A DNA stretch of 64,000 nt from positions 1,481 to 65,480 of the IMG/VR virus record IMGVR_UViG_3300035698_011757. One strand, written 5' to 3'. Origin of the DNA: a virus. Its lineage: Duplodnaviria > Caudoviricetes. Position 1 is the stretch's first letter. Each line of letters starts with the position of its first letter. The notes beneath the pieces are model-generated. The model made no database searches, had not been told where the DNA came from, and worked only from the letters and a program-made list of their open reading frames with translations. The translations under genes and the position numbers were made by a program. Positions 6,594 to 57,776 of this stretch are shown here, one piece after another.

Positions 6594-6651
6594 ATTTCAC
6601 ATCGTAATTGATTTTGTGTAAGCATATATACACAATTAAGTAATAAACATT

Positions 6652-6909
6652 ATGCCAGATCAAAAAAAACCAGTAGCCAAAAAAGCTGCGAAGAAAAACG
6701 AAGAAGCGAAGCCTGTTGTTGAAGAAGCAAATCCAGCTCCAAAAAAAGAAGAGCCAAAAAAAGAAGAGCCAAAAAAAGAAGAGCCAAAATCAGAACTAGA
6801 ATCTCTATGTGATTTCTACTTAGATAAGGTTCGCTCATCAACTCAAGCAAAAGCAGTAGCTATCGAAGCTCTCGTAAAAGTATTGGAACTAGTTAAGAAA
6901 AACAAGTAA
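6652..6909 (+). CDS. Small Lys/Glu-rich protein with PKKEE repeats
   Basis: 85 aa ORF, GTGTAA motif at 6616, terminator downstream. Confidence 0.75.
   Translation: MPDQKKPVAKKAAKKNEEAKPVVEEANPAPKKEEPKKEEPKKEEPKSELESLCDFYLDKVRSSTQAKAVAIEALVKVLELVKKNK
6739..6789 (+). repeat. 15-nt tandem repeat (about 3 copies) encoding PKKEE
   Basis: ccaaaaaaagaagag repeated. Confidence 0.85.
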
Positions 6910-6928
6910 TTCAATAAAATATATTTTT

Positions 6929-6962
6929 AAAAACCCACTAGTAATTAAACTAGTGGGTTTTT
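6929..6962 (+). terminator. Intrinsic terminator
   Basis: aaaaacccactagt-aattaa-actagtgggttttt. Confidence 0.8.
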
Positions 6963-6963
6963 A

Positions 6964-6969
6964 GTGTAA
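6964..6969 (+). promoter_or_regulatory. GTGTAA motif, putative phage late promoter
   Basis: 8 nt before ATG 6978; same spacing at four other genes. Confidence 0.6.
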
Positions 6970-6977
6970 ATACGTGT

Positions 6978-7337
6978 ATGGCTATTGTAAAATTCGACAT
7001 ACATGCGACTAAAGGCTCTACTTTAAACGCTATCCAATTTAAGTTTGTTCAAACCAAAGAGCCAGAGGTTCTTCTGGATTTAACGGGGTGGTCTGTATAT
7101 GCGGAAGTGAGAAAGAAGTCTGGAGACGTTGTTTTAATGGATCTTGAACCAACAATTACAGACGCGCCAAATGGACAAGTAACTATCCAAAAAACAGACG
7201 AGCAGATGCTCGAATTAGACGCCGCAGTTTATAGATGGGACTTAATCCTAGAAGATGAAACTGGGCAAGCATTTCCTCCTTATATTGGGGGAAAATTCAC
7301 TGTTTCAAAAAAAATAACAAACAGCAACAGTGCCTAA
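6978..7337 (+). CDS. Virion structural protein-like (BppU N-terminal-like beta domain)
   Basis: LDLTGWSVYAEVR..ITDAPNGQVTI..YRWDLILED..GKFTV pattern. Confidence 0.55.
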   Translation: MAIVKFDIHATKGSTLNAIQFKFVQTKEPEVLLDLTGWSVYAEVRKKSGDVVLMDLEPTITDAPNGQVTIQKTDEQMLELDAAVYRWDLILEDETGQAFPPYIGGKFTVSKKITNSNSA

Positions 7338-7578
7338 TCAATCGTTCAACCCATGTGTGGTTGAGATAACTGTAAGCGACGCAATAGTTGACGTTAAGCT
7401 TATAGAGGTATCTAGCCAAACTCCTAATATAGAGGTAATAGAAACAACAAGCTCGTTGCCAAGCATTGAGATTGTTGAAATTTCTGGCTTAATGCCGAAC
7501 ATAGCGGTTATTGAAACCTCCACACAGGCAGACCAGTCTATTGAGCTTATTGAGGTCGGGAATATAGCAGGAGAATGA
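7330..7578 (+). CDS. Hypothetical protein with internal P(N/S)IEVIE repeats
   Basis: 82 aa ORF overlapping the upstream stop. Confidence 0.55.
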   Translation: MPNQSFNPCVVEITVSDAIVDVKLIEVSSQTPNIEVIETTSSLPSIEIVEISGLMPNIAVIETSTQADQSIELIEVGNIAGE

Positions 7579-54620: not shown

Positions 54621-54774
54621 TAAAGCATACTTTCCAGTTTGTGTGCAGGATTGGCAATCAGTAATGATTAATGTCTTTTCTGGCGCTGCAAAACCCATCC
54701 GAACAAGAATCTGTGCGGACGTAAGATTAAACACGATCAAACGCCCATTACCCTATTTTCGTATGGACAACTAG
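54592..54774 (+). pseudogene. Truncated HNH-type gene remnant
   Basis: VLKLNKAYFPV N-terminus typical of a phage HNH family; no nuclease core. Confidence 0.45.
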
Positions 54775-54925
54775 AGAGGACTTCGGCAGCATGATGGGTG
54801 ACGCAGACATCACCCATTTTAAAGAGATACCAAAAAAAGAATTAAAAAAGAAAAGACTAAAAACTTGGATAAGGGGTTTTAGTTTAGGTTTAAATTCTCA
54901 TCCAAATAAATATTTATAAAAAATC

Positions 54926-55378
54926 ATGGAACACAAATCATTCAGAAAAATCGGTCAATTCAAAGATGCGATCAGAGATATTCGCCTACGCGCTCAATAC
55001 GCTGGTCTAGACGAAAATGGAGACGCTATTTACGACGAAAGCAAAGACTTGCCTTCAGTAACCTTTGTTGGAACTGTGAAATTGCATGGCTGCGTATCTG
55101 AGGATACTTCAGTCACAATGTCTGATGGAAGTCAAATTCCAATTTCACATCTTAGGGTTGGAGATTCAATACTAAGTTACGACACTAAAAATCAAAAAGA
55201 AGAATTTGATATAATAACCAACGTTCTGTCTGACGACTTGGATAAAGATTGGTTAAGATTGACATTTGAAAACGGAGTAATTTTAGAATGCACGGGATGC
55301 CATCCTATTTTTACTAAGAATAAAGGTTACGTCAAAGCTGTAGAATTAACTAATGACGACGAATTAGTTTTGTTTTAA
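54926..55378 (+). CDS. Rnl2-like RNA ligase part 1 with N-terminal split intein half (55091-55378)
   Basis: FRKIGQF..GTVKLHG|CVSEDT..CTGCHPIFT..GYVKA. Confidence 0.88.
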   Translation: MEHKSFRKIGQFKDAIRDIRLRAQYAGLDENGDAIYDESKDLPSVTFVGTVKLHGCVSEDTSVTMSDGSQIPISHLRVGDSILSYDTKNQKEEFDIITNVLSDDLDKDWLRLTFENGVILECTGCHPIFTKNKGYVKAVELTNDDELVLF

Positions 55379-55413
55379 GTCCACGCCACCATTAGATCCG
55401 TGTAAATATCATC

Positions 55414-55590
55414 ATGGAACCAATAATAGAATATAAAAAACAAGTCACAAAAGCAAACGAAGGTCTTCAAAAAAAATTAAAAGATATTGCTAGAAAAAAA
55501 CATTGACAAAAATGGGATATTCTGTCATAGTTGTGTGGGATTCAGATTGGGAGGTTAATAAGAAAAAATACATAAAAAGAATAGAAGGTG
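55414..55590 (+). pseudogene. Remnant of Vsr/DUF559-like endonuclease between intein halves
   Basis: GTGTAA-N8-ATG at 55400-55416; broken frames; KMGYSVIVVWDSDW tail. Confidence 0.65.
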
Positions 55591-56997
55591 AAATTATTAA
55601 AAAAAGAAAAAATCAATCGTAAAAAATGCTGGGACATTACTGTTCAAAAAAATAGTAATTTTTATGCGAATGGAGTTTTAGTTCACAATTCTAACGCTGG
55701 TCTACTATACGATCATGCGACACAAGAAATCGTCCCTCAGAGCAGGAATAACATTCTTAGTGGAGATGCAGGTCACATGGGATTTGTAGAACACGTAAAG
55801 GAACACAAAGAATTCTACAAAGAAAAACTTGCAGAAGTTTGCGAGAAAGCCGAAATCAATACCGTCTGCGTGTTTGGTGAATGGTGTGGTTGTTTTGAGT
55901 ATTCTACTCCTATTTTACTATCCGACGGAACGACAAAATCTATAGGAAGTATTGTGAAAAATAGAGAACCTGTCGAGGTGATGTCTTATAATTTAGAGAA
56001 TCAAAAATTAGAACCTAAAAAAATAACGAATTGGTTTAATAATGGGACAACTAACGACTGGTTAAGAATAGAATATAAAAAAAGAGGGCGAGGTGGTCGT
56101 AGTTGCCAATTAAGAGTAACCCCAAACCATAAAGTTTTTACAAAAAAAGAAGGAAAATTAGTAGAAGTGAAGGCTTCAGATTTAAAAGTCGGAGACTGCG
56201 TATTTACCTGCGGGGATGTTTTAAAAACGAACCATATAGATTTCATAAGAGGTTTTATTTTGGGATATGAATTAGGCGAGGGCAAAGAATCTAGTGTTAA
56301 GTTTTCAAACAAATTAAACCAAAAATCTTTAGCCTCTTGGCATATGGATTATGGGAATATTATAAAATCAAGAGGGGGACAATATCAGTGCGAATTAAAT
56401 ACCCAAGGTTGGGATGAGCAATCAATACTAGAAACTGAAGTTACAAAAATACAAAAATTTACACCCAAAGAAAACCATAAAAAAGTAAAATACGACATAC
56501 AAGTAGATGGAAATTCAAATTACTTTGCTAATAGAATGCTTGTTCATGACTCTGGCGTGCAGAAAAAAGTAGCTATCTCAGAGTTATCAAAGAGGCTTGT
56601 TATTTTTGAAGCGTGGAGCTTGGAGAAAGATGGTTATATTGATTCTGAATTCCTAGACAACTTTAGGGATCACAGTAAAAGGTGTTACAATATTCGCGAT
56701 TACAAACAGTTCTCTGTAGAGATCGACACAAGATACCCAGAGCTATCTGTTGAAAAATTGAACGACATTATCGACGAAGTTGAAAAGGTTTGCCCAGTTT
56801 CAAAAGCGATGCTTTTGGAGGAAAATCCAGAAAAATGCGTAGATAGAGAAGATTACCTTGGAGAAGGCGTTGTTTTTAAAGCGAGCTTTATTAATTTAAG
56901 TAAAGAAGATTTGTTAAGTTGCGACTCTATAAGCGAAAATGCAAAATCTTTTATTGAGAAAAACTTTAAAAAGGGAAACAATAGGCTATCATTCTAA
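55588..56997 (+). CDS. Rnl2-like RNA ligase part 2: C-terminal split intein half (55588-55689), second intein, motifs III-IV
   Basis: CWDITV..NFYANGVLVHN|SNAG..QSRN..FGEWCG|intein|SGVQK..GEGVVFK. Confidence 0.88.
   Translation: MKLLKKEKINRKKCWDITVQKNSNFYANGVLVHNSNAGLLYDHATQEIVPQSRNNILSGDAGHMGFVEHVKEHKEFYKEKLAEVCEKAEINTVCVFGEWCGCFEYSTPILLSDGTTKSIGSIVKNREPVEVMSYNLENQKLEPKKITNWFNNGTTNDWLRIEYKKRGRGGRSCQLRVTPNHKVFTKKEGKLVEVKASDLKVGDCVFTCGDVLKTNHIDFIRGFILGYELGEGKESSVKFSNKLNQKSLASWHMDYGNIIKSRGGQYQCELNTQGWDEQSILETEVTKIQKFTPKENHKKVKYDIQVDGNSNYFANRMLVHDSGVQKKVAISELSKRLVIFEAWSLEKDGYIDSEFLDNFRDHSKRCYNIRDYKQFSVEIDTRYPELSVEKLNDIIDEVEKVCPVSKAMLLEENPEKCVDREDYLGEGVVFKASFINLSKEDLLSCDSISENAKSFIEKNFKKGNNRLSF
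55891..56550 (+). mobile_element. Intein with deleted endonuclease, ending His-Asp
   Basis: CFEYST..VTPNHKV..KYDIQVDGNSNYFANRMLVHD|S. Confidence 0.88.
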
Positions 56998-57042
56998 ACA
57001 TGCTTTTTCCCTTTGGGTTTGTTGTGTGTAAAAGTAATCAGA

Positions 57043-57776
57043 ATGAAATATAAAGTGTACAAAATCACAAACAAAATAAATGGAAAAATATATATTGGCA
57101 AAACAAAAAACAGTCTGGAGCAAAGATTTTCAGAACACAAATCAAAATCTAAATTAGACTCAAAAACTTATTTAAGCAGGGCTATTAAAAAACATGGTGA
57201 CGAAAATTTCAAAATAGAATCATTAAGCTTTCACTCAAAAGAGAAAGAGAGTCTTGATGCAGAAATCCTGTATATAAAAAAGTTCAACTCTAACGATAAG
57301 AAGCTGGGTTACAATTTAACAAGGGGTGGGGAAGGGGTTTCTGGATGGAGTCCTACACAAGAGACTAAAGATAAAATATCAAAATCACTTAATAGAATTT
57401 TACCTAGTGGAAAAACAGTAGCTCAAGAAGCTTACAAAAAAAGAAACGAGACGTTAAAAAATAAAGATCTAGACTTTTTAAAAAACATCGGAAAGAAAAG
57501 TTCAGAAACTCAAATTAAAAACGAAAAAAGCAAAGGGGTAATAATGCTAACGCAAAAAAAGCGTCGCTATTCGACAGTTTTGGAAATCTACTTTTCGAAG
57601 CTGAATGTGGAGAGGATTTAATAGCTTTTTGCTTAGAAAATTCAATTCCAGAAAGGGTCATTAAGCAGTCATTAATGAGGGGTGGAACTCCAATATACAC
57701 AAGTAAAAATACACCAAAAAAATTAAAAGAAAGTAAATTCGCAGGATATTATGCAAAATATAAGAATAAACAATAG
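57043..57776 (+). pseudogene. GIY-YIG homing endonuclease with a frameshift near 57537
   Basis: VYKITNKINGKIYIG..RFSEH..E..GYNLTRGGEG; C-terminal part continues in another frame (GNNANAKK..FAGYYAKY) to 57776. Confidence 0.82.

Follow-up and report, generated by a model that had tools for sequence, protein, structure and literature searches.

Introduction

In phage phiEco32, gp36 reads a single box, tAATGTAtA, and transcription starts 6-8 bp downstream (PMC8948821). In T4, intron endonucleases have middle or late promoters of their own within earlier units (PMC2988022), and in the fractured genes described by Dassa et al. (2009) ten endonuclease 5' regions contain a phage late-promoter element (PMC2677866). 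[quoted passage not shown] We analysed the hexamer GTGTAA (the box) in a stretch of 64,000 nucleotides (nt), hereafter the window, which comprises 64,000 of the 65,480 bases of a virus contig in IMG/VR (IMGVR_UViG_3300035698_011757) rated 45% complete. An earlier reading of these letters, made without database searches (the sequence-only reading), had proposed that the box, often placed exactly 8 nt before an ATG (GTGTAA-N8-ATG, N8 being the intervening nucleotides), is a late promoter read by a phage sigma factor or activator and acquired separately by unrelated homing endonucleases. According to our analysis, it is fairly probable that GTGTAA is a phage-specific middle/late promoter with its start point 9 nt downstream, probably read by a phage sigma factor, and that the nucleases are part of this scheme.

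The arrangement resembles phiEco32 in having one -10-like box, no -35 element, a nearby downstream start, and middle and late genes behind the box, early genes being served there by host sigma-70. It differs in the box (GTGTAA versus tAATGTAtA) and in the phage and sigma families, which are unrelated, and a leaderless design is unreported in the portion of the phiEco32 account used. Further, the phiEco32 sigma factor is phage-encoded and works on the host core polymerase, whereas here the reader is a candidate only and is absent from the window contig. With T4 the window shares a one-box late promoter and endonuclease genes that sit in early or middle units with a middle or late promoter of their own. 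T4 late promoters are numbered -13 to -6, a geometry that TGTAAnn-N5-start would share. The T4 box is different, however, and T4 endonuclease mRNAs have a hairpin-masked Shine-Dalgarno sequence, whereas here there is none and the start codon is the predicted 5' end; no gp55-like gene was met with here, none having been looked for. As in the fractured genes, dnaE and an RNA-ligase-like gene of the window are broken, with an endonuclease or its remnant between intein halves; there, T4-type TATAAATA lies inside a hairpin, whereas here GTGTAA stands at N8 and a modest hairpin exists only at 22395 (z = -2.6). P23-45, many of whose transcripts are reportedly leaderless, likewise has -35-independent later promoters as opposed to -35/-10 early or host promoters, but it relies on the host sigma factor and a TG-n-TATAAT element; here TG abuts TAA, there is no -7 T, and relatives have sigma factors of their own. 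The kind of element, a one-box phage-sigma promoter, is known; the sequence of the box matches none of the known classes compared, and no published description of it was found in the literature searches made here. New here are a start-point test that is independent of the ATG, a contrast of promoter classes upstream of two sigma families, and an endonuclease count.

Results

The GTGTAA box is conserved at a fixed distance from start codons

All five boxes said to lie 8 nt before an ATG (6964, 22381, 39981, 41548 on the minus strand and 55400) are real, and those at 6616, 8946, 39942 (minus strand) and 57026 are present at N30, N29, N26 and N11, respectively. GTGTAA-N8-ATG occurs five times in the window against 0.33 expected, a count reached by none of 100 shuffles, and N8 alone stands out among spacings 0-30. 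Among all 6-mers combined with spacings 0-15 it ranks first (p = 1.4e-5 over 63,360 tests). Furthermore, 9 of 19 GTGTAA copies lie at most 45 nt upstream of a called gene start, compared with approximately 2.6% expected (p = 4e-10). One-mismatch variants of the box yielded no convincing further site in the window. Avoidance of the box within genes is suggestive at most, the window having 19 copies versus 24-29 expected under Markov models and two relatives (G003 and G002) exceeding expectation. The N8 hit is post hoc among these tests and, in the window alone, would not survive correction; the comparative data carry the case.

For each marker, IMG/VR yielded at least 400 to 560 loci of relatives. 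A profile of homologues of tail protein L (tail L) led to 80 loci on uncultured viral contigs (33-49% protein identity to the tail L of the window; 980 kb in total); closer homologues (51-57% identity) lie outside this set. Over these 980 kb, 63 of the 415 GTGTAA copies have an ATG at N8, with smaller peaks at N9 (27) and N22 (25). The box is found upstream of tail L in 74 of 77 orthologue loci (N8 in 48, N9 in 4, N21 in 1 and N22 in 21), the other three have ATGTAA or GTGTAT at N8, and the flanking intergenic sequence varies from locus to locus. A second set of 80 loci (1.03 Mb) was chosen independently, by a sigma-like gene instead of tail L. There, N8 accounts for 85 of 406 boxes (N9 for 32, N10 for 23), against 8 of 393 for the reversed word, and GTGTAT is a minor variant with 33 copies at N8. 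In eight whole records the N8 counts are 8, 3, 2, 11, 9, 15, 6 and 7, and those of reversed-pattern controls 0, 0, 0, 0, 3, 0, 0 and 1. Two of the relatives' whole records with N8 sites are complete genomes, so that both the genome-wide enrichment and the fixed spacing recur in relatives. Because the relatives show the box conserved at the same spacing, GTGTAA-N8-ATG is accepted as real, and the observation is confirmed.

Two facts argue in the other direction: the word itself is not enriched in the window (19 copies on both strands versus 26 expected), and the window-only statistics fail a full correction for all words and spacings. Chance or base composition, to which the second fact would lend room, is nevertheless refuted by the comparative counts (spacing peaks, conservation upstream of tail L and the hexamer enrichment described below), and we give it practically no credence.

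The box marks a predicted start point

In a profile built from 38 non-redundant N8 sites, the core GTGTAA is invariant, the 7 nt before it are A/T-rich, and nothing resembling a -35 box is conserved at -50 to -8 from the box, as expected for the single element proposed earlier. The 7 bases 3' of the box are A/T-rich as well, without a conserved T at the would-be end of a -10 hexamer (at the would-be -7 position, T 14, A 20, G 4 and C 0). In 37 of the 38 sites a pyrimidine immediately precedes the ATG; by another count this holds for 15 of 18 box-led genes versus 130 of 260 other genes. Start points of bacterial RNA polymerase usually prefer a pyrimidine at -1 and a purine at +1. A pyrimidine-purine step occupies positions 8-9 after the box in 16 of 18 sites with N7-10, and it persists at ATG distances of 11-60 nt (15 of 19 versus 30 of 78 other boxes; p = 0.002). 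All four distant-ATG sites of the window have it. Their predicted starts are A 6630 (T-A step) for the 6616 box, A 8960 (T-A step) for the 8946 box, 39928 for the minus-strand 39942 box, with an 18-nt purine-rich leader before ATG 39910, and A 57040 (C-A step) for the 57026 box, with a leader of 3 nt. Since the step stands at 8-9 regardless of where the ATG lies, the box is tied to a start point and not to a codon. The box is very probably a promoter, and N8 genes are likely to be leaderless because the predicted start is 9 nt downstream of the box. Two start-codon calls would be corrected by it, to 39995 from 39968 for the endolysin and to 41534 from 41669 for the LAGLIDADG gene.

Leaders of the N22 and N26 forms are purine-rich. 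In the N22 subgroup (L006 and 20 other tail-L loci), the leader GTGTAAtataatctaaaggtaaaaggaaATG is near-identical on contigs that are otherwise different. It has the look of a conserved purine-rich leader of 14 nt downstream of the predicted start.

The surroundings of the boxes also bear on a post-transcriptional role, in which GTGTAA would recruit ribosomes without a Shine-Dalgarno sequence or mark an RNA processing site. Such a role would suit the mostly fixed distance to the ATG and a phage in which a Shine-Dalgarno sequence precedes no gene of the window, the regions upstream of genes being A-rich. It is very improbable, as 21 of 77 tail-L loci and 4 of 9 window sites have 11-30 nt between box and ATG with the step at +8/+9 kept, and the box never shares a gene with a TTGACA promoter. 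Moreover, two box sites come after terminator hairpins (that at 6934-6963, fold z = -6.9, directly precedes the 6964 box) and two, 39942 on the minus and 39981 on the plus strand, sit back to back in the divergent gap between the tail-L operon and the endolysin, places where no upstream transcript is expected.

Known promoter types were compared with the profile. Membership in the extended -10 class (TGnTATAAT) was rejected, with TG abutting TAA and no conserved T at -7. Bacteroidota-type promoters have the consensus TTTG at -33 and TAnnTTTG at -7; the box shows no TTTG preference after TAA, and the early promoters are plain TTGACA/TAnnnT. A looser relationship remains to be weighed, in which the host primary sigma factor reads the box (GTG plus TAAnnn, then N5 up to the start) as an extended -10-like promoter that needs no -35, after a small phage protein has disabled sigma region 4, as in Thermus phage P23-45 or with T4 AsiA, and no phage sigma factor is needed. 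The geometry fits a TAAnnn hexamer followed by a 5-nt discriminator, N5-N8 is the spacing that these phages use in their host-type leaderless promoters, one host-type promoter of the window has GTGtTAATAT, and the window contig is without a sigma gene. In P23-45, extended -10 promoters serve middle and late genes while gp39 blocks -10/-35 promoters (PMC7403470). We nevertheless consider this unlikely for the box: the one-base gap of TGnTATAAT is missing, the would-be -7 T is present in only 14 of 38 sites, all six letters are conserved across very distant phages, which is unusual for a host -10 element, and the relatives encode an apparently early-expressed true sigma factor.

Box-led and TTGACA-led genes form two exclusive classes

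For four genomes (the window and three relatives), hexamers were counted, with no motif given beforehand, over the 50 nt that precede operon-first genes; CTTGAC (28 versus 2.4 expected), GTGTAA (22 versus 1.45, p = 7e-19) and TTGACA (27 versus 2.8) were the most enriched. The two classes are mutually exclusive, no gene among 360 having both. The TTGACA class is an ordinary -35/-10 promoter with TAnnnT at N15-18, hereafter host-type. As the sequence-only reading had it, replication and metabolic genes use this class: TTGACA-N16/17-TAnnnT promoters of the window stand before tRNA, replication, sugar or NAD genes. In dozens of genes (at 9650, 11800 and 19110 in the window, and in G002, G003 and G004) the ATG follows the -10 hexamer by 5-8 nt, and a pyrimidine directly precedes the ATG at 26 of 31 host-type leaderless promoters, versus 130 of 260 other gene starts. 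Early genes thus look leaderless too, with host-type promoters apparently set on their start codons.

Box-led genes in the window comprise the tail-tip operon, the endolysin, the phrog_1084 protein, a PAS-domain protein, an 85-aa open reading frame (ORF) and four endonuclease genes. In G003 and G004 the box leads genes for tail L, PhoH, leucine-rich-repeat (LRR) proteins, a tape-measure protein and a beta-roll protein of 1,776 aa; fibre-like proteins are box-led as well. In G004 (83% complete) boxes extend across 0.6-81 kb, and small ORFs at 83-105 kb have a cluster of host-type leaderless promoters, which stand before replication genes too. The proposed label of late promoter stands in so far as box-led genes are mostly virion and lysis genes; it is too narrow for the PAS protein, PhoH and a sigma-like gene, which are box-led as well.

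Two sigma-like families occur in the relatives

The search for a phage sigma factor, suggested together with the motif, came back empty for the window contig and found two sigma-like families in relatives, type A and type B. Weak sigma region-4 matches in the window belong to a helix-turn-helix (HTH)-HNH nuclease. Pfam sigma regions 2 and 4 match type A (223 aa in G003) weakly, with Sigma70_r2 over the cut-off in G009, G010 and G013; the family has more than 300 homologue clusters, some of which were named sigma-24 or sigma-70 family by the Joint Genome Institute (JGI). Compared with solved structures it gave no clear match, and its sigma status is taken from Pfam and the JGI names. Type A proteins (G003 54011-54679, the same as L101:14011-14679, and homologues) contain four invariant or near-invariant cysteines between the region-2-like and region-4-like parts, an insertion that looks like a zinc-binding one. 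Type B (approximately 190 aa) occurs in G001, G004, G010 and G013, and in the PDB its profile finds SigA, FliA, RpoD and RpoS, through their sigma-2 and sigma-4 parts (best E = 6e-7).

The two families differ in the promoter class upstream, scored as the nearest same-strand element within 1.5 kb by strict patterns at non-redundant loci. For type B (51 loci) the nearest element is host-type in 22, the box in 0 and neither in 29, whereas for type A (52 loci) it is the box in 22, host-type in 1 and neither in 29; within 3 kb, the box is nearest for 30 of 41 type A loci. On three contigs the tail-L family and type B occur together. Type B is likely the best candidate reader of the box, judging from its matches and its promoters, and for the phage of the window a type B gene, if any, must lie in the missing 55%. 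The simplest cascade that we infer would run from the host sigma factor to the type B sigma factor and on to the GTGTAA units, type A among them.

Homing endonucleases stand behind the box

Endonucleases were sought by family without regard to the motif, by phmmer and then by Pfam six-frame searches; phmmer with five nucleases of the window against 3,387 ORFs of relatives gave only 4 matches. The window has eight endonuclease-like genes or remnants, of which four have the box: the NUMOD3-type gene at 22395 (N8), the LAGLIDADG gene at 41534 (N8), the remnant at 55414 (N8) and the GIY-YIG gene at 57043 (N11). Among ten free-standing endonucleases in 17 records of relatives, three have it, all in G011 (GIY-YIG at N8, HNH at N11 and HNH at N8). 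LAGLIDADG domains inside long intein-bearing ORFs of relatives were left out of this count. Taken together, 7 of 18 endonuclease-like genes have a box at N8-N11, compared with 18 of 360 genes overall (p = 5e-5). A motif-first look showed one more box-led gene, of the HNH_2 type and in L019, which stands outside the 7 of 18. A box-led 246-aa protein of G002, taken by eye for an HTH nuclease, has only HTH domains according to Pfam and was not counted. The claim that unrelated homing endonucleases share the box therefore holds for four families (NUMOD3-type, LAGLIDADG, GIY-YIG and HNH) and fails for half of those in the window.

The placement of these genes resembles that known from fractured genes. 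The dnaE gene is in pieces (20612-24496), with the 317-aa NUMOD3 nuclease gene between them; this ORF overlaps the next dnaE piece (23312-24496) by 37 nt. The 22381 box, which falls within the last codons of the upstream ORF, is inside the dnaE unit led by the 19110 promoter, and the 55400 and 57026 boxes are inside the region of the RNA-ligase-like gene. The 22381 box is flanked by split-intein halves of dnaE, and the 55400 box by those of the RNA-ligase-like gene. At the sequence level, then, a late-type box directly before an endonuclease ORF inside an earlier unit is found, and endonuclease use of the box is supported.

Nevertheless, the boxes could be promoters of the interrupted or neighbouring phage gene, or part of one type of mobile cassette, and not acquisitions of the endonucleases themselves. 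The 22395 gene overlaps the downstream dnaE piece, Dassa et al. (2009) propose that the endonuclease promoter may serve the downstream half too (PMC2677866), the two split-intein endonucleases may share one family (by eye), and the operon next to the LAGLIDADG gene has a promoter that this gene's box overlaps. These points give the alternative some probability, but a limited one. Against it, four nuclease families have the box, and the window, G011 and L019 make at least three genomes with such genes. Furthermore, the LAGLIDADG gene and one HNH gene of G011 are on the strand opposite to their neighbours, so that the box there can serve the nuclease only. The nucleases may have acquired the box separately or brought it along.

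RNA folds of the four box-led endonucleases pair the AUG with bases upstream of the predicted start in all four; their z-scores are -2.6, -1.4, -0.6 and -0.3, and only the 22395 fold (-2.6) beats shuffles. The C-end of the 55414 remnant resembles the 22395 nuclease by eye only, BLAST giving no match.

Several arrangements were observed around the nucleases. In 54926-57621, an intein sits just past motif I within the RNA-ligase-like gene (KLHG, then C...) and interrupts it. This first intein is broken by stops around the 30-codon endonuclease remnant, and a second, intact intein (Pfam Intein_splicing) and then the GIY-YIG gene follow. At 41514-41557 the promoters are face to face: the LAGLIDADG box overlaps the plus-strand promoter TTGACT-N17-TAGTGT (41514-41542) of the NAD-metabolism operon that starts at 41557, the -10 of which (TAGTGT) abuts the reverse complement of the box, and the divergent ATGs of the LAGLIDADG gene and the NAD operon are only 22 nt apart. 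In G011 58073-59240 (L210, L212), two divergent HTH-HNH genes each have a GTGTAA box of their own (N11 and N8). The HNH match at 5370-5441 is short, in a 76-aa frame adjoining tRNA-Arg, and that at 526-672 lies inside a 5' methyltransferase-like ORF.

A proposed scheme and the points against it

In the scheme that we propose, GTGTAA would be the core, -10-like element of a middle/late promoter class common to a very large group of tailed phages that are aquatic and uncultured. The purine 9 nt past the box would be where RNA polymerase initiates; at N8 sites this purine would be the A of the ATG, giving a leaderless mRNA, and elsewhere a short leader would result. Early, tRNA, replication and metabolic genes would be driven by host-type TTGACA-N16-18-TAnnnT promoters, often placed on the start codon. 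The reader would most likely be host core polymerase with a phage sigma factor, for which type B, itself made from host-type promoters, is the best candidate. Free-standing homing endonucleases, two of them between split-intein halves, would be expressed on the phage late programme through the same box: their genes carry it, and such expression is therefore expected, as for T4 endonucleases.

Besides the two window statistics given earlier, several findings weigh against this scheme. Transcription starts at the box are predictions from sequence; for 33500-43400 no RNA run is listed, only five DNA runs that contain small shares of it. The layout is one of an early and a middle/late class, with the timing inferred from gene function alone, and box-led non-virion genes (PAS protein, PhoH and sigma A) exist, which tells against the word late in particular. 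As to the reader, the window contig, 45% complete, has no sigma-like gene of either type, type B was not found in G002, G003, G009 and G011 (all partial), 29 of 51 type B loci have neither promoter class by the strict patterns, and the type A sigma factor is itself behind boxes, which makes the assignment of the reader sigma tentative. The box may also be of host origin. Among the nucleases, the HNH-like gene at 13632, the HTH-HNH gene at 3395, the HNH frame at 526-672 and the remnant at approximately 5370-5441 are boxless in the window, as are 7 of the 10 endonucleases of the relatives. The interpretation first given to the motif is partly supported: every testable prediction at the level of sequence passed, but the contig has no sigma or activator gene and half of the window's endonucleases do without the box.

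If the scheme is right, it provides a reading rule for a large group of uncultured aquatic phages: TTGACA-type promoters would mark early and metabolic units, GTGTAA would mark virion, lysis and selfish-nuclease units, and the message would usually begin at the start codon. A two-sigma cascade is a further prediction. The T4 picture of endonucleases on the late programme would also be carried over to phages of an unrelated group and to fractured genes with split inteins. A bolder version, which we regard as rather improbable, is that the box and the type B sigma factor form a private transcription code of this very large clade that doubles as a translational gate. In such a phage, without Shine-Dalgarno sequences, an AUG would be read efficiently only as the 5' end. 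An endonuclease in an early operon would then yield no protein from read-through RNA, its sole source being its own leaderless box transcript; the box would travel with endonuclease cassettes as a portable expression module, and homing would also spread promoters.

Coordinates and further content of the window

The positions of the boxes and of host-type promoters are listed in Table 1. The gene identities first given from the letters are upheld by Pfam or PHROGs (NUMOD3, Phage_tail_L, Peptidase_M15_4, LAGLIDADG_3, GIY-YIG and phrog_1084); gene 6978-7337, of phrog_1084, also has a weak tail-fibre-assembly match.

Table 1. GTGTAA boxes and host-type promoters in the window, with the genes that they precede
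Feature	Position	Strand
GTGTAA box, N30, ATG 6652 of 85-aa ORF without family match	6616..6654	+
GTGTAA box, N8, ATG of gene 6978-7337 (119 aa, phrog_1084)	6964..6980	+
GTGTAA box, N29, ATG 8981 of PAS-domain gene 8981-9565	8946..8983	+
GTGTAA box, N8, ATG of NUMOD3 endonuclease gene 22395-23348, between dnaE pieces	22381..22397	+
GTGTAA box (39942-39937), N26, ATG 39910 of tail-L operon	39908..39942	-
GTGTAA box, N8, ATG of endolysin gene 39995-40639 (Peptidase_M15_4)	39981..39997	+
GTGTAA box, N8, ATG 41534 of free-standing LAGLIDADG gene 40686-41534 (LAGLIDADG_3)	41532..41548	-
GTGTAA box, N8, ATG of 30-codon endonuclease remnant 55414-55506	55400..55416	+
GTGTAA box, N11, ATG 57043 of GIY-YIG gene 57043-57621	57026..57045	+
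Host-type promoter TTGACT-N16-TAAAGT-N5-ATG on start codon of GDP-mannose dehydratase gene	9650..9685	+
Further host-type promoters	11800, 19110, 41514	
Host-type promoters serving tRNAs	5723, 7732	

The window has a G+C content of approximately 36%. It encodes RecQ-like, RecA-like, DnaB-like and primase-like replication proteins besides the DnaE pieces, enzymes of sugar and NAD metabolism, and ClpP. The leftward tail-tip operon begins with the tail L gene (Phage_tail_L, 38972-39910 on the minus strand) and continues to 33525; the endolysin and many homing-endonuclease-like genes are also present. No cultured relative was found in the phage collection by megablast of 12 kb or by tblastn with tail L or the type A sigma factor; tblastn of DnaE-N gave a best match of 34% identity there, again without a cultured relative, and a single-protein scan found no close relatives of the window. 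Host labels come only from names of metagenome-assembled genomes, in which a tail-L homologue falls under Bacteroidota and one of sigma A under Methylophilaceae; both may be mis-binned phage contigs. A transfer-messenger RNA suggested near 6239 is unsupported, Rfam finding none in 2300-9700 at E <= 0.01. Finally, tRNA genes are present in the window, and three extra tRNA-like Rfam matches (33.7-41.5 bits) that ARAGORN does not list lie at 3998-4068, 4275-4358 and 6142-6212.

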